A DNA stretch of 64,000 nt, taken from IMG/VR virus record IMGVR_UViG_3300029873_000387; one strand, 5' to 3'. The notes below the pieces were generated by a model that saw only the letters and a list, made by a program, of their open reading frames with translations, made no database searches and was not told where the DNA came from. Every line of letters starts with the position of its first letter. Within the stretch, counting starts at the first letter, position 1. Positions 22,423 to 50,122 of this stretch are shown here, in pieces. Source of the DNA: a virus. Taxonomy: Duplodnaviria > Heunggongvirae > Uroviricota > Caudoviricetes. The position numbers and the translations under genes were made by a program.

Positions 22423-22676
22423 TTGAAATTACCTCCGTTTCTATACCGCTTTCCGTATCGGTCGTTTTTCTAAAGTCCCAAACCGATATGCATCAACATT
22501 GTTCGCCAATCCGACACTTGCGAGCATTGCTTGCAATGCGAGCAAGAAAAAGTTGACTGCCCGCGAAGCGGGCTTGTCGGATTGCGAACATAAGTGGCGA
22601 ACTCTTACTTTTGCCTTTGGCGAAAAGCTGCTGAAAGTGAATATGTATAACAGCAAATCTACAAAGCGGTTGGTCG

Positions 22677-35596: not shown

Positions 35597-35875
35597 CTGT
35601 ACCTGACCGCTTTCCGCAGGGGAGCGCGTTTGTACTGTGGCGCGACCCTGTGCATCAAGTGACATTTTTAACGAGAGATTTTGGCTGTATTAAAATGATT
35701 ATCCGCTGGATAATCTTTTTAATACTGGCTAAATCCGAAGTTAAAAAATGAAGAACGCAAAGTATTTCTTCTGCTTTGAGCGAGAAGATACCGCACAGAG
35801 AAGGGGTATGTATGTGCGGAAAAACTACAAAGCGGTCATATCAAAAGCGAAAGATTTTTTCGCTTAAGAACAAAG

Positions 35876-36415
35876 TTAGTGAAGAATCATCGGTCGATTG
35901 GTGTTAATGAGTTGATTCAATGCCTCGTCTTCTCTTGCTCGTTCAGCGGCTTCCTCTCGGCGGATATCCAGAAGAACAACGCCGCAGAAACCCATCAGTT
36001 CACCGATGGAAAAATCTTCTTCCTCCACAGGAGGCTCATCCGGTTCAGAATCTTCTTCATTAAACATGGTGTCGGTATCGAAATCGTCCTCGTCATCAGG
36101 CTCATCTTCCCAAACACCGTTGTTGTCGCCCCACTCCAGGACATCCTCCTTATAACTGTCAAAGTCATTTTCGTCCATACCGTCATAGTCGAAGCTGCCG
36201 TTCATACGGTAGTAACCATATCCGGTTGGGATTTCGGAAAGCGAGTCTCGAATGTCTCTCCATGAGTAATTGGTGTCGCGGATATCTTCCTCGACATACT
36301 CGTCAAGCTGGTCAGAGTCGATAATGTCTTCGCAGATATTGCAGCCCTCGTCGGAGCAGAAATCAAGCAACTCCCACCATTCGGTTACATCGTTAAGGAA
36401 ATCATTTCTTGTCAT
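35876..36415 (-). CDS. Highly acidic protein
   Basis: 179 aa with extreme Asp/Glu content (...EDEPDDEDDFDTDTMFNEEDSEPDEPPVEEED...). Confidence 0.55.
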   Translation of the reverse strand: MTRNDFLNDVTEWWELLDFCSDEGCNICEDIIDSDQLDEYVEEDIRDTNYSWRDIRDSLSEIPTGYGYYRMNGSFDYDGMDENDFDSYKEDVLEWGDNNGVWEDEPDDEDDFDTDTMFNEEDSEPDEPPVEEEDFSIGELMGFCGVVLLDIRREEAAERAREDEALNQLINTNRPMILH

Positions 36416-36900
36416 ACTGCATCCTCTCTTTCTACCATTTCGGTATCAATCAATGTTAATTTGGATAGCGCCTTTTCTGTCAAAAACGCATACTGCAATC
36501 CAAGATTAGTGCTGGTGAGGTCGTGCTTCATTATTGACATGACCTCTGCTATGGACATACTTGCCCGTCTAAATTTAGAGAACTTACTTTTGAGGTTTGC
36601 TCCGCCGCCAGCCATATTACCAATAACCAAATCATACTCAGTGGAAGTATAGCCCAGCCGAGATGCTACAGCAAACCGCAGCCATGCTTCGGAGTAGCCC
36701 GCAAACTCTAACACCGATAGACCACCCAAATCCTTTACGGTATATGTCTGGATGAAACCTGCGGTTGAGTGCTTGATTGCCATCGGTAATGCGTCAAAAT
36801 AGTTTGGGGTAAGATAAAAGCCGCACCCGAAATCGCGGTACGGCTTGCAAAAAGATAAGGACGGTACAGTAAATGAAACTGGCGTGCCATGATACAGATA
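36412..36900 (-). CDS. Hypothetical protein (possible DUF3990-like family)
   Basis: Start set at MYLYHGTPVSF...DFGCGFYLT. The ORF-track N-terminus (EHRFCTPRVAGSSP) is the back-translation of the tRNA-Thr T-arm and was trimmed. Confidence 0.45.
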   Translation of the reverse strand, partial: YLYHGTPVSFTVPSLSFCKPYRDFGCGFYLTPNYFDALPMAIKHSTAGFIQTYTVKDLGGLSVLEFAGYSEAWLRFAVASRLGYTSTEYDLVIGNMAGGGANLKSKFSKFRRASMSIAEVMSIMKHDLTSTNLGLQYAFLTEKALSKLTLIDTEMVEREDAV

Positions 36901-36926: not shown

Positions 36927-37002
36927 TGGAGCTGGTGACAGGGCTCGAACCCGCGACCCTCGGAGTACAAAACCGATGCTCTACCAACTGAGCTACACCA
37001 GC
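36927..37002 (-). tRNA. tRNA-Thr (anticodon UGU)
   Basis: Cloverleaf GCTGGTG-TAGCTCAGTTGGTAGAGC-A-TCGGT-TTTGTAC-TCCGA-GGGTC-GCGGG-TTCGAGC-CCTGT-CACCAGC-T-CCA. CCA is encoded. Confidence 0.85.
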
Positions 37003-37005
37003 AAA

Positions 37006-37081
37006 TGGAGCTGGAACTCGGAATCGAACCGAGAACCTACGCTGTACGAGAGCGTTGCTCTACCAGTTGAGCTATTCCAGC
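37006..37081 (-). tRNA. tRNA-Thr (anticodon CGU)
   Basis: GCTGGAA-TAGCTCAACTGGTAGAGC-A-ACGCT-CTCGTAC-AGCGT-...-GGTTCGATTCC-...-TTCCAGC-T-CCA. Confidence 0.85.
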
Positions 37082-37270
37082 ATTGGTCGGCTTCCCGCTT
37101 AGATTGTCACACGCTCATGTGCGGCTGGCGCCCCGCAAGCATACCAACCGGCCACTCTTGGGCTAAATCACAAGGGAGACGCATCTCCTCGCGCAGTTTT
37201 CAGCGGGCATTGTTATTCTCTGTGAGGTAAGCCGATAATCTCTCACATCATCTGGGCGCTACCCAGCCTC

Positions 37271-37321
37271 TGGCACGGACGGTTGGGAATCGAACCCACC
37301 ACAAGCGATTTTGGAGACCGC
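37271..37321 (-). ncRNA. tRNA-like 3' fragment (anticodon arm with CCA anticodon + TTCGATT T-loop + CCA end) lacking a pairing 5' half
   Basis: Minus-strand RNA GGCGAG-GCGGT-CTCCAAA-ATCGC-...-GTGGG-TTCGATT-CCCAA-CCGTCCG-TGCCA. No upstream sequence was found that pairs with the acceptor 3' strand. Confidence 0.3.
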
Positions 37322-37626
37322 CTCGCCAGCCTTGGAACATTCGCCCGTATAAGTGGCAGACTATTGCGAACTTGCGGTCTGCCAGCGCGACTCTTTGGTA
37401 ACGCAGGTTTGTATCTGCGTTGCAGATTCCGTCTCTACAGGCTCTGCACAGCCCAGCCACTTTCTATGTGTCGGCACACCGGCATAATTCTGGAGAAACA
37501 TTAGTCCTTTCCACGGCAATGCCATGCCGATGGCGCAGATGGCGGGGATTTGCACCCCGCATGACCTTACAGCGCATCGGTCTCCGCCATTTGAGAGGTC
37601 GGCATCCTGTCTGTAATTTGTAGCGT

Positions 37627-38328
37627 CTACCTATTCCGCCACATCTGCATATCTGAAATCGGAATTACCCGATTGTACAGGGCGACAAACTGGTCGTTGA
37701 GCTGTTTGTCCACATGGTAGTGACCGAAGTACCACCGCTTAAAATGAAGGTCTTGACGAATGCGTTCCAAAAAACTGACCATCGGGTCGTTTTCATACCA
37801 ACTTGCCAGCATTGTCTGGATGCTGCGGGGAGCGCAGTGCGTTACAACATAATCAACTGTCCAGTTGTTCTGCTCCAGAGCACAAACTGCATGTTCCATC
37901 TCCTCGTTTGACGGCATCTCCTGCTGCCACCATGAAATATGCTCCGTGCGATACGCCTTGTCCACTGAGCGAGCACCGCCCATACAGAAGATTTTTCTAC
38001 CGTCAATGGTAAGAACCTGACCTCTGTCCAAATGATAAATGTCCGGTGCAATTTGCCTGACTTTACCGCCGAACCTATCCTCTAACGGGAACTGGTATAG
38101 CATATCAAAGTTTTCGTGGTTTCCGTCAATCCAGAGAGTGGTGAAATTTTTGGCTGTGAGCCAGTCCTGCCACCACATTTCTCTGCGTGAACCGTCCCAG
38201 CACAATCCAAAGTCGCCACATATTATCAGGTAATCATCTTTTGTCAGATTTTTCTGCTGCGGGAATTTTGTTGTGTTAAGTTTTTCAATATCGATATTGG
38301 CGTGAGTATCACCTGTTACATATATCAT
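37627..38328 (-). CDS. Calcineurin-like metallophosphoesterase
   Basis: Motifs GDTHAN, ICGDFG, DGNHE and GHYH. Confidence 0.75.
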   Translation of the reverse strand: MIYVTGDTHANIDIEKLNTTKFPQQKNLTKDDYLIICGDFGLCWDGSRREMWWQDWLTAKNFTTLWIDGNHENFDMLYQFPLEDRFGGKVRQIAPDIYHLDRGQVLTIDGRKIFCMGGARSVDKAYRTEHISWWQQEMPSNEEMEHAVCALEQNNWTVDYVVTHCAPRSIQTMLASWYENDPMVSFLERIRQDLHFKRWYFGHYHVDKQLNDQFVALYNRVIPISDMQMWRNR

Positions 38329-38544
38329 GGAACCCGATTCCTTTCTTCATTTGCAATCTACATGGAGCGTGTACCTGGAGACCGGTGACCGGCGACGGCC
38401 CGGTTGCTTCGAGCGGGTGATTTCAACGGGGATATAGCGCTGTCGGGAAGCGCTTGTGGCTCAGTGTTTTATCTTCCTTGTTGTATTTCGTGCGCCTAAT
38501 GCTCACTTCTGCCGAGGTGTACTCTACCGGCGATGCGCTCTGAA

Positions 38545-38622
38545 CCTTCGTTCCGCCTTCGGGGCGGGCGGCCTTTGCTTTCCCAACAAATTGTTACTTT
38601 GGCCTTTGGCGCAAAGCACATT
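38545..38622. repeat. Conserved noncoding element, copy C (core TTCCCaaCAAaTTGTTACTTtgGCCTTTGGCGcaAAGC)
   Basis: One of three paralogous ~70-bp elements flanking the RT gene in the same orientation. It includes the dyad AACAAaTTGTT. Confidence 0.6.
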
Positions 38623-38832
38623 CCTTTCGGGATGTTATTCATTGCAAATGATTTTGGTGTTCCTGTAATCTACATAGGATAAGCGTGCCGGATGCGAGGC
38701 GCCTGGAGCGCATTGCAGGTGCGGTTAGTTCCTATTTTAATTCTCTGCTGGTGTGGAGTCCATTGTGCCGCAATGACCTCTGATTCTATTTCTCGTGCTT
38801 GATGACGAGCCCGACTGGGTCGGAGCCGCGTC

Positions 38833-38907
38833 AGCAGCCGGTCTTCAGGAAGAGGCGGGGTGTTCCTTCCCAGCAAGTTGTTACTTATGCCTTTGGCGAT
38901 AAGCATT
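38833..38907. repeat. Conserved noncoding element, copy B
   Basis: TTCCCagCAAgTTGTTACTTatGCCTTTGGCGatAAGC, preceded by GC-rich GGAAGAGGCGGGGTGTTCC. It lies 60 bp downstream of the RT stop. Confidence 0.6.
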
Positions 38908-38964
38908 GCTTTCGCAATTATCCATTACAGGAGATGGCGGTTTAACCTCAAACCGCCAAAGGGA

Positions 38965-40122
38965 TTATCTTAAATCGTCTTTGATAAGCCGCAGGACATC
39001 TGTCTCCATTTTTTCGTTGGTGTGCTTCACGATGGCATCGATAGTCTCCGGCTCTACCATGCGATAGTAGCTATGTAAGCCCTGCATAGTTTGCACATCT
39101 TCTCTCGGCCACGAGATGCCCTTGCGTTTATCGGTAATGTAGTTGTAAAGCATGGACTGGAACTGGCGCTTCTTCTTATGGCCGACAGTAATTTCATTGT
39201 CCTTGTTGAGCATAACACCAAGATTCCAGTTACGACCTGCGGAAGAGCCGTATCTCGTTTTGCTTTCGTTGATGGTGAACGGCGCTCCAAATTCATGCAG
39301 CGTATCCACCACGAGTTTTTCTACACGATGCACATCGAAATCAACCTTAGACGAAATGATGAAGTCATCGGCATATCTGGTGTAAATGAACCGCTGCTTG
39401 TCAAAATCACGGAATGCATTGGCAAGCTTATAGTCAACAGGAATCATCATCACATTGGTAATCAGCGGAGAAAGTGGAGTTCCCTGCGGCAGACCTCCAT
39501 TGAGAAAAGCCAAATCCAAGGCCTTCCGCAACTCTGCCTCGCCGTTGGGAAACTTTACGATTTCGCTGAATGGGAACACCATAGAAAGCATTTTGATAAC
39601 ATAATCCAGCGTGGTGCTACCAAAGAAATCGTGCAAATCCAGCTTGCCGAACCATTTGCTGTTGTTTTTCTGATGGCGCTTGACCGCATCAACCGTACAT
39701 CTGTTTTTTACATAGGCGAATGCAGAAGTGTGATACAACGCATGGAAATCTTCCTCAAAAATAGTCTTGAGATTCCGCAATGCGTTCATCAGCTCCGGTT
39801 TAGGGGCATCAATACGACGCAAACCACCAGACTTTTTGGGGATGTGGAATGTTTCATACAAAGTACTGCGTTCCTGTGCGCGAAGCGCCTCCGTTTGCTC
39901 ATTAAAGCGCACCAGTTTGCAGATAAGAGCGTCCGTATCAATGCGGCTTGTGAAATGCTCACTTACCGTTTCATATGCATAGGTTCGTGTATTAGAAACA
40001 TTTGTGTTTAATATGGTTGGCGCTTGGAAGTTTTGAAAGAGAAACTCTTCCAGTGTCATTTGGTGATAAATCGGGGATTGCATGACCGTGATATATACCA
40101 TCGCCCTATGCCTCCTTTTCAT
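38965..40122 (-). CDS. Reverse transcriptase (standalone; palm + thumb only)
   Basis: RT motifs IPKKSGGLRRIDAP (1/2), LDLHDFFGS (A), GLPQGTPLSPLITN (B'), YTRYADDFII (C, YADD). 385 aa. No endonuclease or maturase extension. Confidence 0.85.
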   Translation of the reverse strand: MKRRHRAMVYITVMQSPIYHQMTLEEFLFQNFQAPTILNTNVSNTRTYAYETVSEHFTSRIDTDALICKLVRFNEQTEALRAQERSTLYETFHIPKKSGGLRRIDAPKPELMNALRNLKTIFEEDFHALYHTSAFAYVKNRCTVDAVKRHQKNNSKWFGKLDLHDFFGSTTLDYVIKMLSMVFPFSEIVKFPNGEAELRKALDLAFLNGGLPQGTPLSPLITNVMMIPVDYKLANAFRDFDKQRFIYTRYADDFIISSKVDFDVHRVEKLVVDTLHEFGAPFTINESKTRYGSSAGRNWNLGVMLNKDNEITVGHKKKRQFQSMLYNYITDKRKGISWPREDVQTMQGLHSYYRMVEPETIDAIVKHTNEKMETDVLRLIKDDLR

Positions 40123-40354
40123 AGTCGTAACTGTAACCTACATGAGTGTTGCTGCGTTTGAATCAAAAGAAGCTCATCTGCAGGGAGCTGAGTGAGCTGC
40201 ATCTGCCAGTATCTTTTTAGTTAAGTTGAGAATAATTGTCGTGATTTGGGTGGGTTTTGTGTAGGATAATACTTGACAAGCCAGGTTTGCTGTGCTATTC
40301 CGGCTGTTGGTTCCCTGGTGGATGTCCAAGGTGCCTTCGGTGACCCCGGAGGAG

Positions 40355-40430
40355 TCGATGGTCATCCTTCTGGGCAGGCGGTGTTTTCCTCCCCGACAAT
40401 TTGTTACTTCAGCCTTTGGCGTGAAGCCCC
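40355..40430. repeat. Conserved noncoding element, copy A (upstream of the RT)
   Basis: CCTCCCCgaCAAtTTGTTACTTcaGCCTTTGGCGtgAAGC, preceded by GGCAGGCGGTGTTTTCC. Same orientation as copies B and C. Confidence 0.6.
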
Positions 40431-40466
40431 CGAAAAGGGTAATTCGTTACAGTTCAATGGCGCATT

Positions 40467-41276
40467 TTAAGGCTGCGCCACACCTAATAGCTCGAACAGT
40501 TCTGCATCTGTGCAGGTTTCGTTTTTCAATGCGTATGGTTTGATGTGGGCTACGCCGTTTTCATCAACCTCTACCACTGTTTCCGGTTTCAGCCGACACA
40601 TCGGCCTAAGCCCCGCGCAGTCACGGGGATATTTCCTCTCACAATACCCAGACCTACTAAGAGCCAAAGCATAGTCTCTGAATCCATCCTGCTTGCCTGC
40701 CAACCAGAAATTCATGTAAGACTCCCAACTGAAATTACCAAACCGGCCTTTTTTGTTAGCACAGTCTTCTGTTGCTTTGGGACGAATGCCTTTCTTGGAA
40801 AACAGCTTCAACTTCAATTGGTCATCAAGGATATCGGTGATGGTAGGAAGTCGAATGAGGGAACTGAGCGTCTCACCGTCAACCACATACTGCTGCATCT
40901 GCAAGCTATCGAGTTCATAATCTTCAAAGAAGTATAGAAACCCATAATGGTTGCGATAGCTTTGTGCTCGGTTGCTGAAAACATTATTCGGAGGGGCATC
41001 TGCTTCATGAGTTTTGCGAAACCAATCGTCTCTGTCGCTGTTTAGGTATGTATGAATATTGGACAGACGATAGTCGGGATTGCCAAGATTGCGCCTGCCG
41101 TCTCCAGTTCTTTCCGGTGCATCAAAGCAAAGATAATCCACGGCACACTCGGTGATAAAATCGCAGTTTGGACTGCCTTTCAGCCAAACAACAGGGTGCG
41201 GCTCATCATTGTTGACACCGTAAGAGCCAATGATGACCGGTGTGCCGACCTTAAGGCGTTCAACGGTAGTATCCAT
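40467..41276 (-). CDS. Hypothetical protein
   Basis: 269-aa ORF downstream of the E1-like gene. HPVVWLKGSPNCDF is only vaguely E2-like. Confidence 0.45.
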   Translation of the reverse strand: MDTTVERLKVGTPVIIGSYGVNNDEPHPVVWLKGSPNCDFITECAVDYLCFDAPERTGDGRRNLGNPDYRLSNIHTYLNSDRDDWFRKTHEADAPPNNVFSNRAQSYRNHYGFLYFFEDYELDSLQMQQYVVDGETLSSLIRLPTITDILDDQLKLKLFSKKGIRPKATEDCANKKGRFGNFSWESYMNFWLAGKQDGFRDYALALSRSGYCERKYPRDCAGLRPMCRLKPETVVEVDENGVAHIKPYALKNETCTDAELFELLGVAQP

Positions 41277-41310: not shown

Positions 41311-41988
41311 TTAAAAAGCGTCCAACATAAAGTTGAACGCATCCAAGATGATAAGCTTTTTCAACCCCTTGCCACGAATGAAGTTGACAAAGTTGGCAAC
41401 GCCAAGTGCGCAGATAGCTCTGACAGTCGGTGCAACACCCAGCGTAATGCCGCAGGCGGAGACAGGCGTTTCCTCAGCCGCTTCTTCATGACTGAAATTC
41501 ATGGAGTTCAACAGGTCTTTCTTCATCTTGTAGTCAGACCAGTCAGCAGCATAATGCTGTGCGGATTCCAGCAGAGTTCGGAAATCCAGCATCGCTTTGA
41601 CATAAGGATTGTCAAAATGCTTTTCAACAATCTGGCGGCGCAGTTCGATATTGTCCACGCAGAGGAAGACATAGCCGGAAAGCTGCTGACCACTCCACCC
41701 CTTGCCGTAAAGCTTGAGGTCATCTTTGATTTCGGGATTGATTTCAAACAGAATATCTGCCAGAGCCTCCACTTTGGGGCGACCGATATCCTGCTGGCGG
41801 AAAATCTGGTTTGCCAGATTGTGCGGATTCACGACATCCATATCCCACAGGGCGAGATTGGTGATGCCAAGACGGACGAGGTTCTCTGCCAGTGTTGCGC
41901 CGACAGAACCACATCCAACAATGTTAATGCGAGCCTCAACCTTTTCAGGCTGAAAATACTCGTAGCTTTTAGACAAATCCATCGCCAT
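41311..41988 (-). CDS. E1-like (ThiF/MoeB-family) adenylyltransferase
   Basis: Rossmann motif NIVGCGSVGATLAENLVRLGITNLALWDMDVVNPHNLANQ. Short (225 aa), as in minimal bacterial E1-like proteins. Confidence 0.75.
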   Translation of the reverse strand: MAMDLSKSYEYFQPEKVEARINIVGCGSVGATLAENLVRLGITNLALWDMDVVNPHNLANQIFRQQDIGRPKVEALADILFEINPEIKDDLKLYGKGWSGQQLSGYVFLCVDNIELRRQIVEKHFDNPYVKAMLDFRTLLESAQHYAADWSDYKMKKDLLNSMNFSHEEAAEETPVSACGITLGVAPTVRAICALGVANFVNFIRGKGLKKLIILDAFNFMLDAF

Positions 41989-41990
41989 TA

Positions 41991-42977
41991 TTACTCACCT
42001 CCAAGATACTGGTCGCTGTAGCCTCCATAGTGATACACAGAGTCATCGTCATCTTCGTCCCACATGGACTGCTGACTGGCGTTCTTTCCTTGCCAACCCG
42101 CACCGATTCTTGTGCGCGGTTTCTCGCCGGACTTTTCAGACTTCTTGTCCGATTTCTTATCGTCAGACTTCTTATCGGACTTCTTACCGCCCTTGTCCTC
42201 TTTCTCATCCTTTTTGCTTCCCGGAAGAGGATTGTAAGGGGCGCCGGAATAAGGCGGGCGATTGCCACTGTAGCCGCCATATCCGCCATAGTTGCCATAG
42301 GTATAGCTTTTCTGCTTGACCATATCCTTGGCGGTCTTGAGGAACTCGGCCAGCCCCTCATGCTCACCCTCAAGCTTGACGGTGATGTCCTTATCTTCAA
42401 ACAGGACATTCTTCTTGAGGTCATAGATTTTATTTGTACTGACAAACGACTTGTTCCAAATCATGAAGATGTAGAAATCATCGTCCCCCAGCATATTGAG
42501 GATTTCCTCCTGATGATTGAGGTCTACAGAGGAAGGACTGGTCGGCATATTGACATGGGAATGCCCCTGCATATGAATGTTGTTGAAACGCTCATCGTCT
42601 GCATTCTGCATCAACCACTCAGCGTACTTCTCGGTATCCATCTCAACCGTGGTGCCAGAAACCTCCTGCGGATAAACCACGATGTCTTCGATGATGTACT
42701 CATCTACGGCTTCGTCGGCTGCACGATGTGCAACACCATGCCAAGCGACCTCTTTATCGAACTCCTTGATAAGGAGTGCCATCTTTGCCCATGCTCCAGC
42801 GGTAAAGACGACAGTTGCTTTTCTGTCACCACAGGTGAACACCTTCGTGAATGACAGTTTTCCATCTGCAAGCTTTGTGAGTTGCAGAGCCTTTTCAAAG
42901 TCCGCACGGCACTCAGCCATGTACTGCTCGGTCATCTTAATGGGTTTACTCATTTTGCGCCTCCTCCGCTTACTCAT
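41991..42977 (-). CDS. JAB/MPN (JAMM) metalloprotease with a low-complexity tail
   Basis: Exact JAMM motif HSHVNMPTSPSSVD (H-x-H-x7-S-x2-D). The C-terminus carries Gly/Tyr and Lys/Ser/Asp repeats. 4-nt overlap with the E1-like gene. Confidence 0.75.
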   Translation of the reverse strand: MSKRRRRKMSKPIKMTEQYMAECRADFEKALQLTKLADGKLSFTKVFTCGDRKATVVFTAGAWAKMALLIKEFDKEVAWHGVAHRAADEAVDEYIIEDIVVYPQEVSGTTVEMDTEKYAEWLMQNADDERFNNIHMQGHSHVNMPTSPSSVDLNHQEEILNMLGDDDFYIFMIWNKSFVSTNKIYDLKKNVLFEDKDITVKLEGEHEGLAEFLKTAKDMVKQKSYTYGNYGGYGGYSGNRPPYSGAPYNPLPGSKKDEKEDKGGKKSDKKSDDKKSDKKSEKSGEKPRTRIGAGWQGKNASQQSMWDEDDDDSVYHYGGYSDQYLGGE

Positions 42978-44433
42978 TTGTCTGTGCTTCTTGCTGCTCC
43001 AACCAAGTGATGGCTTCGTTGGGCTTTACAACACGACCATCAGGCAGTTCGATGCAGCGATTGTTGCTGCCGTTGCCCCACATAGACCGCATAAACGAAG
43101 TCATAACCGCAGAGTCACCCCAGTTAAGACTCTTGCAGGAAGCAATGCACTGCTCCAACGCACCGATGTAATCGTGATTCTTGAGGAGCCTGTTGATAGT
43201 GGTGGTATAGTTGCCCATGCAGTTGTAGTCGCTGATGTGGGGATTGGGAAGATAATCAGCGTACTCTGCGCCAAAGCTCCGATGCCCCTGCGGAGAAACG
43301 CTGCCGTTGAGATCAAAGCGATACGATGCGCAGACACGAATTTTCAAACGTGGCTCTTCGCTGACAAAGATTTCAGTCATCAGCCTTTTCATCTTCTCAG
43401 CAGCTGCACCTGTATGGCCGGAACCACCATCAGGACGATAAACGAAGCTGGTAGCACGATTGATGATTCGCTCCGCCATATCCCGGTCAAAATATTCCAG
43501 GCAGTCCTTGACCGTGAAATACATATCGGTGTTGGTCACACGCTCCAGAACCAGCTTGGTATTACACAGGAAGTACTCCATGATTTCGGAGTCCTCACCG
43601 CCATCGGCAACTTTCTGCTCAAGCCCCAGCAAACGAATGCACTGCTCATTACGCTTCGTGAACTGTTCACCGATATTGTCATTCAGGCGGGTGATTTCTC
43701 TATCAATGTTCTGAATCATCTGCCTGACCCGGTCGCACTCAATCTGCTCATAGCGGGTTTCAAACCCCTTCAACAGCTGGCGGATTCTTGCGGTTCGGAA
43801 ATCATACCGTTCTGCAAGTTTGGCAAGACAGCGTTCATACTCTTCTGAGTTCTTCTCACGAAGGGACTTGACCAACGCAAGTTCATCCTCAGTGATGCCC
43901 TCCTGCTGGTTCAGATACCACGGCAGGAATGCAAGGATAGAAACCTGCAGGTAGTGCATTTTGCGGATGTCGAGGCTGTCCGCAAAGATAATAACGCTTT
44001 TAAGTTCGGGATTGATATAGCAATCTACGGCGAAAGACTTGCGGTAGAACTCTGCGAACTTTTCGAGGCGATGATACCCCGCATACACAGAGGCAAACTT
44101 GTCAGCGATGATTTTCATGTTGGCAAAATTGCTGTCCGAATCTGCCCGCAAACTATGAACAACAACCTGTCCCGTCGCGTTCATATCATAGTTGTTGCAG
44201 ACAGCCAAAACGGCTCTGTCCGCTGGAACACTCCGAATAGTGTCTGCCGTATAATCGGAAGAGCCGAACACCAGATTGACGGACTCTCCCTCTTTGATTC
44301 GAGGTGCAACTAAGGCACGAAGCGTCGCAAGGAAAGAGCAGTCGTTGCCGAAAGCACCGCCGGTAATGTTGGTGAAGTAGCTATTGGCAGCTTCCGTGGT
44401 AAACGGCGTTGACGAAATGCTTGTTTTGAACAT
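42970..44433 (-). CDS. Large hypothetical protein of the E1/JAB gene cluster
   Basis: Start set at MFKTSIS (AGAGGTG RBS), because the longer ORF-track start overlaps tRNA-Leu. Confidence 0.5.
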   Translation of the reverse strand: MFKTSISSTPFTTEAANSYFTNITGGAFGNDCSFLATLRALVAPRIKEGESVNLVFGSSDYTADTIRSVPADRAVLAVCNNYDMNATGQVVVHSLRADSDSNFANMKIIADKFASVYAGYHRLEKFAEFYRKSFAVDCYINPELKSVIIFADSLDIRKMHYLQVSILAFLPWYLNQQEGITEDELALVKSLREKNSEEYERCLAKLAERYDFRTARIRQLLKGFETRYEQIECDRVRQMIQNIDREITRLNDNIGEQFTKRNEQCIRLLGLEQKVADGGEDSEIMEYFLCNTKLVLERVTNTDMYFTVKDCLEYFDRDMAERIINRATSFVYRPDGGSGHTGAAAEKMKRLMTEIFVSEEPRLKIRVCASYRFDLNGSVSPQGHRSFGAEYADYLPNPHISDYNCMGNYTTTINRLLKNHDYIGALEQCIASCKSLNWGDSAVMTSFMRSMWGNGSNNRCIELPDGRVVKPNEAITWLEQQEAQTNE

Positions 44434-44460
44434 AGGAACACCTCTATTCATTTTGTTATA

Positions 44461-44545
44461 TGGTGGGGAATATCGGAGTCGAACCGATATGGTATGCACC
44501 AGCGGATTTTAAGTCCGCAGCGTCTGCCTGTTCCGCCAATTCCCC
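44461..44545 (-). tRNA. tRNA-Leu (anticodon UAA), type II
   Basis: GGGGAAT-TGGCGGAACAGGCAGACGC-TGCGGA-CTTAAAA-TCCGC-TGGTGCATACCATAT-CGGTTCGACTCCG-ATATTCCCC-A-CCA. Confidence 0.85.
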
Positions 44546-44596
44546 ATAGAAAGAGCCGCCCATTCGGGCGGCTCGGCTGGTTTAATTGCTTGTGAA

Positions 44597-44824
44597 TCAG
44601 GCATTATCGGCCTTGACCACATTCAGCAGGAAGCACTTCTCGGTGATACCGAACTGAGCGAAGGTCTTGTCGAGGTCGCCGGGGTTCAAAGAGGAACCGT
44701 CGAGGTGCATGACGCCACGGGTGTAGTCAACGCCGTTTGCCTCCAGGCAGGCACGCAGGGTAGTGGACTCGTCGATGATAACGGACTCGCGCTTGACATT
44801 GTTGCCAACAGTAACCTTAATCAT
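44597..44824 (-). CDS. Small beta-grasp protein, possibly ubiquitin-like (ThiS/MoaD-like pattern), ending in ...KADNA with no terminal GG
   Basis: MIKVTVGNNVKRESVIIDESTTLRACLEANGVDYTRGVMHLDGSSLNPGDLDKTF... follows the ThiS pattern M.I.V......V.....TL..L...G......V.L.G..L....L. Confidence 0.4.
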   Translation of the reverse strand: MIKVTVGNNVKRESVIIDESTTLRACLEANGVDYTRGVMHLDGSSLNPGDLDKTFAQFGITEKCFLLNVVKADNA

Positions 44825-44866
44825 AATGTTTCTCCTTTAATTCAAAATTTGTTTTGTTGTGAAACG

Positions 44867-44895
44867 GAACGGGGCGGTGTAAACCGCCCCGTTTT
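44867..44895. terminator. GC-rich hairpin terminator between two minus-strand genes
   Basis: CGGGGCGGTgtaaACCGCCCCG followed by TTTTG on the plus strand. The U-tract is weaker on the minus strand. Confidence 0.45.
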
Positions 44896-44906
44896 GCGAC
44901 CCGTGA

Positions 44907-45305
44907 TTACTGAGCGACCGTGATGTTGCTCATCACAGTTGCCTTCTCACCCGCAATCTCATCGAGAACGGCGGGCAGCTTCTCCTCAAGCTTGTTGAGG
45001 TTGATGATGGCGGCGCCCAGACGGTCGGCAACCCAATCCTTGACATCGCCGGTCACGCCGTCAAGGAACAGGGTGATACACGCCAGCTTCTCATCATCGC
45101 GGGTCTCAGCGCCGAAAGAAGCGCCGAAAGCGTTGATGTTACCGGCACCACTGGTGGTACCCACAGCGAAGATAGGCTCCTTACCGTCCTCGCCGCCCTT
45201 GAGAACCAGCTCCTTGGGGCGGTACTTCTCAATGGTCTTGATGTCCTCCAGCTTCATTGCGGAAGTTACGACAGCTGCGTCGCCTGCGATAGTGATTTTT
45301 GCCAT
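44907..45305 (-). CDS. Hypothetical protein (Gly/Ala-rich)
   Basis: 132-aa ORF with a hairpin terminator immediately downstream, suggesting high expression. Confidence 0.5.
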   Translation of the reverse strand: MAKITIAGDAAVVTSAMKLEDIKTIEKYRPKELVLKGGEDGKEPIFAVGTTSGAGNINAFGASFGAETRDDEKLACITLFLDGVTGDVKDWVADRLGAAIINLNKLEEKLPAVLDEIAGEKATVMSNITVAQ

Positions 45306-45397
45306 GATGTATGTACTCCTTCAATACTGATGTACTCCTATTGGTTCACCTTGCGGTTATCCGCCCACACCACGGGGAGGTTGGAGCCGTTGTGGGT

Positions 45398-45432
45398 ATA
45401 AAACGCGCCCGGTCTCCTTCACGGAGCGCCGG
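45398..45432 (-). terminator. Hairpin terminator downstream of 45498..46172
   Basis: On the minus strand: GCCCGGCGCTCCGTGAAGGAGACCGGGCGC then GTTTTATAC. Confidence 0.4.
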
Positions 45433-45497
45433 GCACTTGTAAAAAGCTATTTGATTTTACAGGTTCGGGCAAAAGCTGATGGCTGCGCCATGCAGCT

Positions 45498-46172
45498 TTA
45501 AGTGCAGAAGCCGAAAGCGACGCCATTACTGTCGTTGGCGTAGTAAAAGTTGGCGCCGCCGTTGCTGTTGACACGACAGAAAAAATCGCTGTAGCCAGAA
45601 CGAGGAGAACGCAACATGGTGTACTCGGGATTACCGTTGCGAAGCTTGAACCATGCGACATCCTCCTGACGATACCATTCGTACCAATGTCCCTCGCCGG
45701 GCGCAGAGTAGATATTGCGCCCATACAATTCCTTCTCGGACTTTATCCAGAAAGAATCCAGTGTCTCAATGATACGATTTTCTCCTGTGTACACATCGGC
45801 TGTCTGCTTAATGACTGGCGTGACAACATCCAAAATCTCATCGGGAATCAGACGATGGATGTCGCCGTCCGCATCGTTGAGCCGGTGGCGAATTTGGGTT
45901 GCCTCCCACGACCCCTCGTTGGTGTCCCGTCTATTCCACGGGTAAGTGTTAGGCAGACAGTCTACCATCTCCCACGAAATGGGAGCCAAAGAACCGTCGC
46001 TTGTTTTGTCATGATTGAAGCCGATGATGCGAAACTGAACCTGCGCACCGTTCTTCAGCACAACATTGCGGTAATCTCCGAGCTGCAAGAAATCAGCCGC
46101 ATATTTTCCAAGCCCTTTCAAAGAACGCCAGGGCATATTATCCAAGCAGTTTGGCATCTCACAGACCTCCAA
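45498..46172 (-). CDS. Hypothetical protein
   Basis: 224-aa ORF, Trp/Asn/Gly-rich. Confidence 0.5.
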   Translation of the reverse strand: MEVCEMPNCLDNMPWRSLKGLGKYAADFLQLGDYRNVVLKNGAQVQFRIIGFNHDKTSDGSLAPISWEMVDCLPNTYPWNRRDTNEGSWEATQIRHRLNDADGDIHRLIPDEILDVVTPVIKQTADVYTGENRIIETLDSFWIKSEKELYGRNIYSAPGEGHWYEWYRQEDVAWFKLRNGNPEYTMLRSPRSGYSDFFCRVNSNGGANFYYANDSNGVAFGFCT

Positions 46173-46181
46173 TCAAAAATG

Positions 46182-46272
46182 TGGCGGGGAGTGTAGGATT
46201 TGAACCCACGGACGGCTCATCACCGTCAACGGTTTTCAAGACCGCCGCCATAAGCCACTCGGCCAACTCCCC
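46182..46272 (-). tRNA. tRNA-Ser (anticodon UGA), type II
   Basis: GGGGAGT-TGGCCGAGTGGCTTATGGC-GGCGGT-CTTGAAA-ACCGTT-...long variable arm...-GGGTTCAAATCC-...-ACTCCCC-G-CCA. Confidence 0.85.
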
Positions 46273-46288
46273 ATAAAAGAAGGGCGGG

Positions 46289-46954
46289 TCATTTCAGACC
46301 GCCGCCCTTAATATCATTCCAAAAACCACCGCTAAACTCGTCATCGTCCACCGGATAACCGGCATCATCCTCATACGGGAACTCCGTATAGACCTCGCAG
46401 CCAGTTTCTTCATCCGTGATAATCATGGGGCGGTAAATGGATAAGCACTGCTCCTGTGCGAGGTACTCCAAGAAGTGGTCTAATACCTCGTTTACGAACA
46501 TTTCTCCATATGTATCCATGATTTCAGGGCTGTTATCTATTGACTCCTGCAAGACCACGGACAGGAAATCACACAAAGCAAGAGAAAGCTCGTCCTCACG
46601 CTCATACTGCGCATCCTCCATATCCTGCCGAGTCAAATCCTCCGGCTCTTCTTCCGGCGGTTCCGGCGGGCACTTCTTCCCGTCAACAATCATAATAGGA
46701 AAAAGATATTGTGCATACAGGCGCTTTGCCGCTTCGTTACACCCTGTTTCGGTCAGAACACACTCTTCGTACTCTGGCTTTGCATCACCCTTGCACACAG
46801 AAAACAAAGGAAGCGCATTATCCTCGGTAAGATAAACCGCATACTGTGTGTCTGTGTTCTCTGCGATGACGACCATTTCCTTTGACAAACGGTCTTTATG
46901 ACTTTGGAAGAAAGTCCACGCTGTATTTGCGGCTACATAAATATGAACCCCCAC
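46289..46954 (-). CDS. Hypothetical acidic protein
   Basis: 221-aa ORF. Confidence 0.5.
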   Translation of the reverse strand: MGVHIYVAANTAWTFFQSHKDRLSKEMVVIAENTDTQYAVYLTEDNALPLFSVCKGDAKPEYEECVLTETGCNEAAKRLYAQYLFPIMIVDGKKCPPEPPEEEPEDLTRQDMEDAQYEREDELSLALCDFLSVVLQESIDNSPEIMDTYGEMFVNEVLDHFLEYLAQEQCLSIYRPMIITDEETGCEVYTEFPYEDDAGYPVDDDEFSGGFWNDIKGGGLK

Positions 46955-46982
46955 GGTAAATAACCTCCTTGCGAGTTAAAAT

Positions 46983-47058
46983 TGGTGCCCCCGATGGGGC
47001 TCGAACCCATGACACCCGCCTTAAAAGGGCGGTGCTCTACCAGCTGAGCTACGGAAGC
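46983..47058 (-). tRNA. tRNA-Lys (anticodon UUU)
   Basis: GCTTCCG-TAGCTCAGCTGGTAGAGC-A-CCGCC-CTTTTAA-GGCGG-GTGTC-ATGGGTTCGAGCCCCAT-...-CACCA. Confidence 0.85.
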
Positions 47059-47198
47059 ATAAACCGGCTGTTACGGGGCGCCCAGAAAGGTGGACACGCT
47101 TGGATTCCACAGCAGCTTTGCCGTTTGAAAGGAAGGCGATGAACGACGGACGAAAAGGAGAGAGCTGCTGAAAGGACACAACACCGTGGCAAAGCTAA

Positions 47199-47282
47199 TG
47201 GTGCAGGATAAGAGACTCGAACTCTTACGCCAAAGGCAGCGGGACTTGAATCCGCTGTGTCTGCCAATTCCACCAATCCTGC
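47199..47282 (-). tRNA. tRNA-Leu (anticodon CAA), type II
   Basis: GCAGGAT-...-GCGGA-TTCAAGT-CCCGC (one A/C mismatch closes the anticodon stem)-...-GAGTTCGAGTCTC-TTATCCTGC-A-CCA. With a fully paired stem the loop would be 9 nt, so the stem is drawn with a mismatch. Confidence 0.75.
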
Positions 47283-47410
47283 ATATGAGAGTGGCTTTAA
47301 GGTCAGCCAACCACCATCTGACTAACTATTTTGTCATTACAGGCGTACTCTCTATTGGAAAGCCGTTAGCCTGTAATCTTGCCCCAGTCATGTTTGTTGG
47401 AAGGGCTCCG

Positions 47411-47497
47411 TGGTGCGGGTAGTGAGACTTGAACTCACACGCCCCGACGGGCACAAGCACCTCAAGCTTGCCTGTCTGCCGATTCCAGCATACCCGC
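47411..47497 (-). tRNA. tRNA-Leu (anticodon GAG), type II
   Basis: GCGGGTA-...-CAAGC-TTGAGGT-GCTTG-...-GTGAGTTCAAGTCTCAC-TACCCGC-A-CCA. Confidence 0.85.
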
Positions 47498-47513
47498 ATA
47501 AGACCAGAATCTT

Positions 47514-47726
47514 TTACTCAACAATCAGGATAATAGAACTCCCACGCCGGGGAAGACACCACTTTCTAATTGTGGCACACTTCACTTCAGGTTTCATGTA
47601 ACGCTCATCGTCGATGGCTCCGCTATACAGCGTTTCACAAAGGCCGTTTGTGTTACGCCGAACCAACAGACTATCAACCCGAGAATCCAGAGAAAAGTGT
47701 GCTCTTATGAAATCCAGAACCGTCAT
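47514..47726 (-). CDS. Small hypothetical protein
   Basis: 70-aa ORF. Confidence 0.35.
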   Translation of the reverse strand: MTVLDFIRAHFSLDSRVDSLLVRRNTNGLCETLYSGAIDDERYMKPEVKCATIRKWCLPRRGSSIILIVE

Positions 47727-48046
47727 GAAGTGACCTCCTTTGCGAAAGTTTCAAAGAGCTTGTCCAGTTCTGTTGCATCAACTTCAAGCTCGTCACTGTC
47801 GTCAATGCGCTTAATATCGCTGGGCGCAACGAACCATCCGTACCCGTGAGAACACGATTCCCGACAGTCATGACCTCCGACAACCTCCTCGTCCCATCTA
47901 ACCCCGATATGCGGGAAGGTGTCAACGATAATGCAGACAACGCCCTGCATCCCAACAGAGATACTATCGTTATCATCAGGCGAATCTCGGATACATTCGA
48001 CTCTATCGCCGACATTAAGGGTATCAGCAATCATGTCCTCGCCCAT
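47723..48046 (-). CDS. Small Cys/His-containing phage protein (possibly DUF4314-like)
   Basis: Start at MGEDMIADTLNVGDRVECI...GVRWDEEVVGGHDCRESCSHGYGWFV. Confidence 0.4.
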   Translation of the reverse strand: MGEDMIADTLNVGDRVECIRDSPDDNDSISVGMQGVVCIIVDTFPHIGVRWDEEVVGGHDCRESCSHGYGWFVAPSDIKRIDDSDELEVDATELDKLFETFAKEVTS

Positions 48047-48207
48047 CTTCTTCCTCCTCAAAATGCTTGATGATTTCTGCAATGGAGTAATCATCCCACC
48101 ATCCGCCAGAATACTGGACAGCGGAACCGAAGAAACCCCGTTTAACAACAACTGTCTTGTTGGGAATGTCGATATACACTCTTATCCGTCGCATTCTAAC
48201 CCTCCAT

Positions 48208-49026
48208 TTATCTCCAGTTGGTGGACACGCGGCCATCCGGATGGATAATGATATTGGAATAGCCGTCACCATAATCATTGTGACGCTGCTGCCACATATC
48301 ACCGAGTGTTACACGGGCGTGTTTTCCTGCATAGTCAAAGGTTGCGTACACAAAGAAATCACCGATTCTGAATGTGTGTACATCAACATCCGCATCCTGC
48401 TGCAAATCGTTCCAGATGTCTACGGGGTAATCCTTCTTTTCAAGGCCACTCAGGAACCGGAAAGAAAAGCTGCTGGCATCCATCTCCATGTAGTCCTTGA
48501 TAGAAGCAAGCGTAGGATTCTCAACTATCGTTTGAACTGTACACCCCGGAAAACCAGCCGGGTCTGTCCAGACATAATCGTTGCGTGAAAGGTTGATGTG
48601 TGCCAGTCCATTTAACTCCGTGCTGAAACCCGTGGTGTTGATGGAGCAAAACACATCATTACCGTTCTTACGATAAGTCTCAACGATATTGGCGATGTGC
48701 TTGGGATAAAGGCCGGGTTCGCCGCCCGTGATAGACAGCCGTGCGTTGGGATGCTCCTGCAAAACCCGCTTCAACGCCTCGATTTGTGCATCGAAATCAT
48801 TGTCTCCCGACATAGGGTTCTGCCGTTCCAAGCAGAAGGGGCAGTGGAACGGACACTCCTGTGTCGTAATCATCTGGACATTGATGCGGTAATAGAGAGG
48901 GCGTCCGAGAGAAGTTTTGGCTGTCCTGTTCGCCAGCCTATACTGCAAGTCGTTGCTCATTTCGGCCCGGATTTCCTCGTAGGAAGATATGTGTGGTATG
49001 TAGTTCATCTTGCTGCTCATCGGCAC
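48208..49026 (-). CDS. Radical SAM enzyme
   Basis: CPFHCPFC (CX3CX2C) and SITGGEP (SAM glycine-rich motif). 272 aa. Confidence 0.75.
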   Translation of the reverse strand: MPMSSKMNYIPHISSYEEIRAEMSNDLQYRLANRTAKTSLGRPLYYRINVQMITTQECPFHCPFCLERQNPMSGDNDFDAQIEALKRVLQEHPNARLSITGGEPGLYPKHIANIVETYRKNGNDVFCSINTTGFSTELNGLAHINLSRNDYVWTDPAGFPGCTVQTIVENPTLASIKDYMEMDASSFSFRFLSGLEKKDYPVDIWNDLQQDADVDVHTFRIGDFFVYATFDYAGKHARVTLGDMWQQRHNDYGDGYSNIIIHPDGRVSTNWR

Positions 49027-49046
49027 CCCTCCTTATGAATTGTTTC

Positions 49047-49247
49047 TCAGCCTCTGCCCACCAAGAGGAAGGCTATAAATGCGACAAGAACCGTTATTAC
49101 GACACTGTCATAAGCTACTCGAACATAGTTATCAGTTCTCATTCGCTCCATCTTTGTACGGAGGCGCTGGATTTCTTCGTTCTTGCTTTCACGCTCAAAT
49201 TTGTATCGGTAATACGCATCACCGGATATAAAATCATTACGCTCCAT
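49047..49247 (-). CDS. Small membrane protein
   Basis: 66 aa with a C-terminal TM segment VVITVLVAFIAFLLVG. Confidence 0.4.
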   Translation of the reverse strand: MERNDFISGDAYYRYKFERESKNEEIQRLRTKMERMRTDNYVRVAYDSVVITVLVAFIAFLLVGRG

Positions 49248-49275
49248 ACTTTTGCCTCCTTACCAAAGTCATGTT

Positions 49276-49668
49276 TTATTGAATGCCATCTATCCACACC
49301 TCTATTGTGCGGCGATTTGCAAACTGTTTGCAGAGTTCCTCGATAGATATACCATGCGCTTTTGCGTCCGCTTTCATTGCCGCAAACTGGTCTTTATATT
49401 TCTTGACCATTTTTTCAAGTGTAAGGAAACGCTCTTTGTCCGCAGGATAGAAAACAATATCATCTAATCGAACTTCGTCGATATTGCCAGAGTGAAATAT
49501 TGCCTTCCAGCAGTCCTTGCACGGCTCATCCAGTGGCGATACTTGGTGGTTTATGCAATTACTGCAACAGACGACCACGCCATTTACCTTAATTGGTTTC
49601 ATCGGTTGTCCTCCTTTGCAATAAGGTAGCTGTTTTTTAGGGTTTTTCGCGCTGCCGCAGATTTCCAC
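49276..49668 (-). CDS. Cys-rich hypothetical protein
   Basis: 130 aa (CKGG...CCSNCINH...CKDC). Confidence 0.45.
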   Translation of the reverse strand: MEICGSAKNPKKQLPYCKGGQPMKPIKVNGVVVCCSNCINHQVSPLDEPCKDCWKAIFHSGNIDEVRLDDIVFYPADKERFLTLEKMVKKYKDQFAAMKADAKAHGISIEELCKQFANRRTIEVWIDGIQ

Positions 49669-49829
49669 GCATTGTCCTTACCGTCTACCCCTAATGCCAC
49701 ATGGGGTCACAGACCCTAAACACTTCTGCTCTGTGCCGGTTGTGTTCTGATACCGGAAAACATCCTGGAGACTTTGTTTAACCTTGTTGCTCCAGTCCTC
49801 AAGGGTAACTCGGCAAGTGGCTTGCCTAT

Positions 49830-49905
49830 TGGTGGAGATAGTCGGACTTGAACCGGCGACCCTCTGCGTGCAAAGCAGATGCTCTCCCAACTGAGCTATA
49901 TCCCC
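49830..49905 (-). tRNA. tRNA-Ala (anticodon UGC)
   Basis: GGGGATA-TAGCTCAGTTGGGAGAGC-A-TCTGC-TTTGCAC-GCAGA-GGGTC-GCCGGTTCAAGTCCGAC-TATCTCC-A-CCA. The G3:U70 alanine identity pair is present. Confidence 0.85.
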
Positions 49906-50032
49906 ATCTCGGAAGCGGCTTAAAACCCTTTGCTACTCAGCCGCATGATGTTCCCCAATTTGCTGCTTCCTGCACTCTGGAAATACAGGACATTCTTTGC
50001 TCCAGAAACAAAGCATGAACATCGTTCCCTAT

Positions 50033-50122
50033 TGGTGGGAAAGGTTGGATTTGAACCAACAAGGGTTGCGCAACTTCCCAGGGCTTAACTCACCCCGCGT
50101 CTAACCGTTTCGCCACTTTCCC
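50033..50122 (-). tRNA. Type II (long variable arm) tRNA with a non-canonical anticodon loop; identity unresolved
   Basis: GGGAAAG-TGGCGAAACGGTTAGACGC-GGGGTGAGTTAAGCCCTG-...-GGTTCAAATCC-AACCTTTCCC-A-CCA. The anticodon arm folds with either a 9-nt loop (TGAGTTAAG) or a 7-nt loop (GAGTTAA) that lacks U33. Confidence 0.55.

Follow-up and report, generated by a model that had tools for sequence, protein, structure and literature searches.

Introduction

Phage genomes only occasionally present a reverse transcriptase (RT) gene together with its own repeated noncoding elements, and the question raised by such a locus is what the enzyme uses these elements for. The locus considered here lies at positions 38,329 to 40,466 of a 64,000-nucleotide stretch of DNA from a virus of the Caudoviricetes (IMG/VR record IMGVR_UViG_3300029873_000387), the whole of which is called the window in the following. 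In a preliminary description, which had been made from the letters and open reading frames (ORFs) of this stretch, a stand-alone RT flanked by three copies of a conserved noncoding element of about 70 bp had been noticed. A unit of RT and noncoding RNA (ncRNA) resembling a retron or a defence-associated reverse transcriptase (DRT) had been proposed, with a protein operator as an alternative role for the dyad contained in each copy. According to the current understanding, a retron is a tripartite abortive-infection system of bacteria in which each RT has a single ncRNA. The analysis of the locus and its relatives suggests a phage-borne retron which has no effector and several template RNAs, represented in the window by three, probably five units. 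That an RT of the retron type operates here with multiple cognate template RNAs is considered likely from the sequence comparisons, and the formation of actual branched RNA-DNA molecules (multicopy single-stranded DNAs, msDNAs) from the units is proposed with somewhat less confidence.

Class and Product of the Reverse Transcriptase

The ORF of 385 amino acids that had been reported is present and carries the YADD and QGTPLSP motifs. Its product probably comprises only 378 amino acids with the start at 40101, because all 120 homologues among the matches listed have a length of 378–380 amino acids and because a Shine-Dalgarno sequence AAGGAGG (40117–40111) is located 9 nt upstream of the ATG at 40101. 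RVT_1 (4.7e-19) is the sole Pfam domain, which agrees with the earlier statement that additional domains are lacking. Profile searches placed the enzyme with the retrons. The best PADLOC models were the retron models RT_II-A (9.9e-48), I-A (5e-41), and III-A (1.5e-39), and all of the top 25 PADLOC matches were retron or retron-derived RT models. With the NCBIfam models, retron_St85_RT yielded 4.7e-52 and 177 bits (curated cutoff 235 bits), as compared to 81 bits for the group II intron model TIGR04416 (cutoff 300), 40 bits for Drt2 (cutoff 390), and 28 bits for Drt3a (cutoff 200), the two DRT scores thus being well below their cutoffs. The closest structure in the PDB was the RT of Ec83 (5e-23), and the top nine matches were all retron RTs, including that of Ec78.

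In an alignment with the Ec83 enzyme, the region X sequence NAKIH (motif NAxxH) corresponds to AVKRH and the region Y sequence VTG to NLG. The histidine of region X and the glycine of region Y do not vary among 30 diverse family members. These are the residues which have been described as the most conserved ones of the two retron motifs (PMC7736814). Judged by profiles and structures, the RT branches deeply within the retron RT clade and is a divergent member of it.

Anatomy of the Units Flanking the Reverse Transcriptase Gene

The three co-oriented repeat copies could be confirmed at 40366–40427, 38843–38904, and 38556–38617, each having 62 nt, with identities of 71–79%. The sequence GCCTTTGGCGNNAAGC is present at exactly four positions of the window (40412, 38889, 38602, and 22613). 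When up to three mismatches were allowed, 16 matches were obtained as compared to 5.8 ± 2.2 in shuffled sequences, and the repeat copies are therefore not due to chance. The view of a self-contained element of about 70 bp had to be given up. Each copy forms the 5' third, an msr-like module, of a unit of roughly 270–330 nt (272–326 nt), and the units additionally have a common 3' end motif consisting of (C)AUGUAG and the arm. One such unit is located upstream of the RT gene (U) and two downstream (D1 and D2; see the table). The leader of about 340 nt which had been described in front of the RT is indeed structured, and is unit U itself. Complete units closed by distant inverted repeats had not been recognised in the preliminary description, nor had the distal unit E5.

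When the leader and the region downstream of the RT gene were folded, each repeat copy turned out to be preceded by a short arm (a1) whose complement (a2) lies 270–330 nt downstream and pairs with it. According to folding and to an inverted-repeat search, these closing helices are perfect in U, D1, and D2 and have 9–11 bp. In all three units a G is found right after a1 and another G right before a2, the latter usually as AUGUAG. The first G is followed by two hairpins, the stems of which covary between the copies. Hairpin 2 is the most conserved feature and reads GCUU-CA/AU/UG-C-GCC-AAA-GGC-UG/AU/CA-AAGU. The dyad AACAAnTTGTT is too short to form a hairpin. Its 3' half provides the 5' strand of a longer-range helix, P3 (UUGUCG/CGACAA and UUGCUGG/CCAGCAG, with one compensatory UUGUUGG/CCAACAG), for which support is limited and comes from the close clade only. 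The 3' end of U lies 28 nt before the RT start, D1 and D2 follow each other in tandem with a spacing of 9 nt, and the end of D2 is 19 nt away from the phosphoesterase gene.

According to published descriptions, retron ncRNAs are recognised by the inverted repeats a1 and a2, by a pair of opposing G residues, and by an msr with one to three short hairpins; the G after a1 together with the G before a2 is the specific signature of retron priming from a 2'-OH (PMC7736814). The features present at the units are an ncRNA located upstream on the same strand, the a1/a2 helix, the G/G pair, and two short hairpins. No Rfam family matched the unit sequences, either at the gathering threshold in the window or at E ≤ 10 in the RT region 38200–40600.

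Table 1: Features of the locus and of the remaining window. CM, covariance model; z, fold z-score; MFE, minimum free energy.
Feature	Position	Strand	Details
Retron-type RT	38965..40101	-	378 aa (probable product); RT domain residues ~67–366; N-terminal extension residues 1–66
RT ORF	38965..40122	-	385 aa; ATG at 40122 is an upstream in-frame start
Unit U, upstream ncRNA	40129..40454	-	326 nt; CM match 102.9 bits; a1 40454–40446 AACUGUAAC; candidate branching G 40445; hairpin 1 ~40439–40428; hairpin 2 40427–40406; variable centre ~40369–40175; opposing G 40138; a2 40137–40129 GUUACAGUU
Unit D1, first downstream ncRNA	38661..38932	-	272 nt; CM match 104.2 bits; a1 38932–38924 UCCUGUAAU; candidate branching G 38923; hairpin 2 38904–38883; centre 38702–38847; opposing G 38670; a2 38669–38661 AUUACAGGA
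Unit D2, second downstream ncRNA	38347..38651	-	305 nt; CM match 110.5 bits; a1 38651–38641 UCAUUUGCAAU; candidate branching G 38640; hairpin 2 38617–38596; centre 38373–38566; opposing G 38358; a2 38357–38347 AUUGCAAAUGA; 11-nt perfect inverted repeat
E4, distal retron-like ncRNA	22445..22670	-	226 nt, intergenic; R2 match 23.9 bits; z -3.64; a1 ACCGCUUU, G, hairpin 2 GCUUUUCGCCAAAGGCAAAAGU, long branched stem GUUCGCAAUCCGACA/UGUCGGAUUGGCGAAC, G, a2 AAAGCGGU
E5, distal retron-like ncRNA	35606..35836	-	231 nt; MFE -79.3 kcal/mol; z -7.49; a1 ACCGCUUU, G, hairpin CCGCACA/UGUGCGG, hairpin-2 variant UCUUCUCGCUCAAAGCAGAAGA, ~35-bp stem-loop, small hairpin, G, a2 AAAGCGGU
Hairpin	38933..38960	-	stable, without U-tail; UUUGGCGGUUUGAGGUUAAACCGCCAUC / GGCGGUUUgaggUUAAACCGCC; between RT stop codon and D1
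ORF p269	40467–41276		269 aa; between E1 gene and upstream repeat copy
Conserved trio upstream of RT	41311–44499	-	509-aa protein, JAB/JAMM protein, ThiF/E1
Calcineurin-like metallophosphoesterase	37627..38328	-	Pfam Metallophos 5e-12; phrog_1649; PADLOC PDC-S10 1e-5 (weak)
DUF3990 protein	36412–36900	-	several PADLOC candidate-defence models, among them PDC-M13B (1.8e-23) and PDC-M10A
tRNA genes (10)	36927–37348 and 44461–50122	-	Thr x2, Trp, Leu x3, Ser, Lys, Ala, Asn
RAGATH-36	52602–52730	-	151 bits, full-length Rfam match
RAGATH-4	54517–54651	-	112 bits, full-length Rfam match
RAGATH-16	54828–54899	-	96 bits, full-length Rfam match

Conservation and Covariation in Related Phages

A scan of viral contigs, confirmed by tblastn, provided 70 loci with RT identities of 41–100%. 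Scanning of species-representative genomes added 27 further loci, all of them on contigs of metagenome-assembled genomes (MAGs) which mostly have 95–135 kb and were mostly, although inconsistently, binned as Clostridia. The inconsistent bins and the length of 95–135 kb fit phage contigs that were swept into the bins. Among the bins of these 27 loci are Prevotella, Bacteroides, Alistipes, an archaeon, and many Clostridia, and they probably represent mis-binned phage contigs; the animal sources include guts of horse, goat, sheep, deer, and rabbit in addition to human. A near-identical RT is found on at least 1000 contigs. The known phage genomes of INPHARED contained no nucleotide match, and the closest protein match in this check, with 41%, came from an unannotated faecal contig.

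A CM of the 5' module gave 164 matches in the first set of loci, and a rebuilt model gave 113 in the distant set. All of these are located on the RT strand, and about 95 loci have units flanking the RT. The full flanking-type element was found at these related loci only beside the RT, and not upstream of many unrelated genes, which the preliminary description had named as the pattern expected of a simple promoter or terminator. As a rule, one unit ends shortly upstream of the RT start and the stop codon is closely followed by one or two more, so that two to three units are located within 3 kb of the RT. Some loci have four or five units near the RT. In locus L079 (RT at 3001–4134) one unit is located upstream and four downstream (2657, 4157, 4576, 5099, and 5347), locus L083 has two units upstream and two further ones downstream, and L074 likewise contains more units near the RT. 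The copy number of the units is thus evolutionarily plastic.

The closing helices in the family have 9–13 bp and are built from 33 distinct arm sequences. Double changes occurred at all eight a1/a2 pairs tested, 100% of the cells were paired, and none of 500 shuffles reached the score. A comparison of cognate with non-cognate arms served as an independent control and yielded 22.4 for cognate arms, 15.9 for the arms of other units, and 15.1 for shuffled targets. For hairpins 1 and 2 taken together, 98.3% of the cells were paired, with 329 double-change cells as compared to 83 in shuffles and double changes at 10 of the 13 pairs, and pairing collapsed when the alignment was slid by one column. 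The distant set (RT identity about 41–72%) comprised 110 distinct units, 94 with a clear arm helix and 74 bounded by the G/G pair, and here the arms extend up to 18–19 bp and have unrelated sequences. Together with the ranking of the RT models, this covariation of the msr-like modules bears out the earlier proposal of an RT with its ncRNA, and points to its retron form.

Distal Units

Two further candidate units, E4 and E5, are located at distances of 16 kb and 3 kb from the RT, respectively. The arms of E4 and E5 are identical to each other. Hairpin 2 of E4 is of the type found in the three flanking units, and corresponds to the fourth, core-only copy (22607–22628) which had already been noticed. 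E4 is present in related phages of two clades. It was recorded in 22 related viral contigs, a further comparison gave 28 distinct variants, and its stems show compensatory changes. E5 is near-identical in three related contigs and is directly followed by an intrinsic terminator (about 35593–35573). No Rfam family matched E4 or E5 down to E ≤ 10. Both are closer to a textbook retron ncRNA than the flanking units are, and their sequences are conserved, without the hypervariability of those units. That this RT may use them is suggested by the common layout, and for E4 also by hairpin 2. A sixth candidate at 11206–11007 was discarded as a chance match inside a gene.

Hypervariable Centres

Comparison of strains with 97–99% identical RTs revealed an uneven distribution of changes along the flanking units. 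The first approximately 85 nt and the last 25–45 nt of a unit are 81–100% identical, mostly more than 93%, whereas the central 150–200 nt are only 54–90% identical and contain many insertions and deletions. Between the window and the related locus L004, for example, the RT gene has 98.2% nucleotide identity and the centre of D2 54%. Beyond close relatives the centres are unalignable, and attempts to derive a consensus fold collapse. The composition of the centres in the flanking units (A.30, C.30, G.21, U.19) deviates from the roughly.25 of each base in the genome, and this excess of A and C precludes full pairing.

Centres match only between units which have an identical arm. They therefore diverge in place and are not shuffled, and an exchange of cassettes between unit classes was rejected on these grounds. 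A coding function was likewise rejected because of the frequent insertions and deletions of 1–2 nt between close strains. With respect to a role as antisense to phage genes, no match of more than 12 nt was found elsewhere in the window. The pentamers UCAUC(A), AAAUC(A), and GCAGC are enriched in the centres as compared to shuffles (z 7–11), an enrichment that is not interpretable and may partly be explained by common ancestry.

Gene Neighbourhood

The RT had been described as sitting alone between an E1/JAB cluster and a phosphoesterase gene. This has to be amended on one side, where p269 separates the E1 gene from the upstream repeat copy. In related loci the gene order p509, JAB, ThiF/E1, (p269), U, RT, D1, D2, (metallophosphoesterase) is kept. 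From 46 loci which were fetched via the ThiF/E1 gene 45 carry the RT, the sole exception being one that stops at the contig edge, and the RT is therefore a fixed gene of this phage lineage. In contrast to this, p269 and the metallophosphoesterase were not detected in many related loci (in the fetched flank and within about 3 kb downstream of the RT, respectively), and are dispensable across the family. The metallophosphoesterase is a frequent, non-universal downstream neighbour of the RT and is listed as context; membership in the system is not implied.

Within the conserved trio, the 509-aa protein p509 has no family match. The 328-aa JAB protein contains the JAMM motif HSHVNMPTSPSSVD (HxHx7Sx2D) and a low-complexity tail rich in Lys, Ser, Asp, and Gly. 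The 225-aa ThiF/E1 protein matches Cap2-type E1 models of CBASS (cyclic oligonucleotide-based antiphage signalling system) with its Rossmann part only. A ubiquitin-like or E2 partner was not identified. Profile searches with the RT neighbours gave no PADLOC retron-effector model, the only hits being the weak PDC-S10 match and those of the E1 and JAB proteins, and no ATPase/HNH, nucleoside deoxyribosyltransferase (NDT), or other effector was found beside the RT. On the minus strand no promoter- or terminator-like signals separate the units from the genes, with five promoter-like sites as compared to 5.1 expected. The hairpin between the RT stop codon and D1 may be a processing or stability element.

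Several other features of the window were recorded. The ten tRNA genes form two clusters on the strand of the RT operon. The three RAGATH matches are orphan structured RNAs, and the phage genome is unusually rich in ncRNAs. The ORF listed for the DUF3990 protein extends to 36987 and overlaps a tRNA-Thr gene, so that the true start is probably further downstream.

Proposed Mechanism and Alternative Explanations

In the mechanism proposed here, a common transcript would cover the units together with the RT and the genes downstream of it, as suggested by the lack of promoter or terminator signals between units and genes, with the intrinsic terminator located after E5. The RT would recognise hairpin 2 and its flank in each unit, use the 2'-OH of the G that follows a1 for priming, and start copying the RNA at the G that precedes a2, from where synthesis would proceed back into the variable region. 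Priming at the one G and templating from the other are adopted from the retron paradigm. Several different msDNAs would then be present per infected cell. The centres change far more quickly than the RT gene, the unit ends, and the neighbouring genes while remaining A+C-rich, and the complementary DNA (cDNA) would accordingly be rich in G and T.

A number of points weigh against a multi-template retron. All support for it is drawn from sequence. With 177 bits, the RT stays below the curated retron_St85 cutoff, and each of the two retron motifs keeps only its most conserved residue, with N, A, V, and T being lost. No effector is present at the locus, whereas characterised retrons are tripartite. 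The flanking units U, D1, and D2 have no evident classical long msd stem-loop, and consequently the boundary between msr and msd cannot be placed. Their centres fold modestly better than mononucleotide shuffles (mean z -1.6) and show little covariation. The 3' anchor and register used for counting the a1/a2 pairs were taken from the helix search itself, and E5 is tied to the RT by its layout only.

Some of these points would also be expected if the units were cognate RNAs of the RT which are put to a use different from that in retrons, such as the synthesis of unbranched cDNA, of repeated or template-jumping cDNA in the manner of DRT2, or as an RNA-binding scaffold, with the closing helix merely presenting the RNA. 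The centres are A+C-rich, poorly structured, and unlike a classical msd stem, the retron motifs are kept in part, the RT falls short of the curated retron cutoff and has an N-terminal extension of 66 aa, and an adjacent effector is missing. Yet a G following a1 and a G preceding a2 are kept across very different arms, E4 and E5 do have the classical long stems, and the DRT models score far lower than the retron model (Drt2 40 bits, Drt3a 28 bits), so that a non-retron use is judged unlikely. A more distant connection would be that the units are structured RNAs with tasks outside reverse transcription, for instance in mRNA processing or stability or as small RNAs or sponges, and merely syntenic with the RT. 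The window is rich in other such RNAs (RAGATH-36, -4, and -16, and 10 tRNAs), E4 and E5 lie far from the RT, and in phages synteny may be maintained even if no functional link exists. This explanation is nevertheless distinctly improbable, since in about 95 loci, with RT identities as low as 41%, the RT gene is flanked by units on its own strand even where other neighbours have changed, and since the units correspond point by point to the architecture of a retron ncRNA, with the upstream unit abutting the RT start as it does in retrons.

That the repeats act as DNA, serving as operators, promoters, or recombination sites for the swapping of cassettes, is hardly credible. The dyad AACAAnTTGTT is kept in three copies, and the centres do behave like alleles between conserved ends. 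However, compensatory changes in helices formed by strands 270–330 nt apart and in two hairpins are unexpected for protein-binding DNA, the strand specificity is strict, promoter-like sites are not in excess, and matching of centres only between units with the same arm speaks against cassette shuffling between unit classes. The operator suggested for the dyad was therefore abandoned; its 3' half is accommodated in an RNA helix. A diversity-generating retroelement had already been dismissed in the preliminary description, and this is corroborated: differences between the copies are scattered and not A-specific, no second copy of any centre exists in the window which could form a template repeat/variable repeat pair, and the RT with its QGTPLSP and YADD motifs scores as a retron RT. 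A group II intron was rejected as well, with 81 bits for TIGR04416 against a cutoff of 300 and without any intron RNA domain found by the Rfam searches of the window and of 38200–40600. The idea of a replication origin with msDNA as a primer did not hold, as the cumulative GC skew turns near 54 kb and not at 38–40 kb.

If the multi-template retron is taken as a basis, the absence of a toxin, the fixation of the RT in the lineage, and the fast turnover of the templates argue for a role which benefits the phage. As a guess, a function of the msDNAs or of RT-RNA complexes in host takeover or counter-defence, as a decoy or sponge, is favoured over abortive infection. A more specific version, in which lytic phages of gut Clostridia domesticated a core retron and use an array of three to five units to make fast-changing msDNAs as decoys or sponges against variable host factors, is tentative and rather doubtful. 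Hypothetical targets of such decoys are host retron effectors, defences which sense single-stranded DNA or single-stranded DNA-binding proteins, and end-processing nucleases.

Significance

Retron machinery is apparently fixed in a very common gut phage lineage, where it occurs without a toxin, with several cognate RNAs, and with fast-evolving templates. A virus thus appears to have retained and multiplied a bacterial anti-phage device and to have put it to a new use. Should the RNAs be reverse-transcribed, this would be the first natural retron array and an instance in which a virus employs msDNA for its own purposes, raising the matter of msDNA roles beyond the restraint of toxins. It would also provide compact pairs of RT and ncRNA that accept long (150–200 nt), highly variable inserts and work in arrays, and long inserts and use in arrays are properties wanted for retron-based genome editing. 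E4 and E5 are candidates among the orphan structured RNAs of this phage for which a function can be tested.

Comparison with Known Systems

In the searchable literature, which did not cover the preprint 10.64898/2026.09.22.753630 ('ncRNA array', retrons), no earlier account was found of a natural retron with multiple ncRNAs, of units that follow the RT or lie at a distance from it, or of the system in this gut phage lineage. The closest bacterial systems are the retrons of RT clades I-A and II-A (Retron-Eco7/Ec78, Ec83, and Sen2/St85), which resemble the phage locus in the RT models and solved structures matched best, in the ncRNA located directly upstream on the same strand, and in the a1/a2 closing helix, the opposing G residues, and the short msr hairpins. 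In contrast to these, the phage RT has at most 25–30% identity to their enzymes, with NAxxH and VTG being reduced to xxxxH and xxG, and is accompanied by three to five ncRNAs (two following the RT gene, two dispersed) instead of one. The phage system further differs in having no effector, in being a fixed gene rather than part of a bacterial defence island, and in the long, A+C-rich, and hypervariable centres of its units.

An arrangement in arrays has been achieved by engineering. In the 'multitrons' tandem msr-msd units on one transcript are served by one RT, each giving its own RT-DNA (PMC10370050). D1 and D2 are likewise arranged in tandem, 9 nt apart. The multitrons are synthetic, based on Eco1, and use an identical, duplicated msr, whereas the phage units are natural, have arms of their own, and are found on both sides of the RT.

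With regard to phages, gp206 of MarsHill, a lytic jumbo phage of S. aureus, is a retron-like RT without an adjacent effector, and a large noncoding region upstream of it is presumed to hold the ncRNA (10.1101/2020.12.14.422802). It belongs to a different RT lineage and has 501 aa including an N-terminal domain of 200 aa, its ncRNA is undefined, and multiple units have not been reported; the RTs of S. aureus jumbo phages have about 26% identity to the enzyme described here (tblastn). Orphan retrons, which consist of an RT and an ncRNA without an associated protein, do exist in bacteria, and a different mechanistic function has been raised for them by Mestre et al. 2020 (PMC7736814). Those are bacterial and have a single ncRNA, whereas the system described here is viral, has multiple ncRNAs, and is built around a core gene of its phage lineage.

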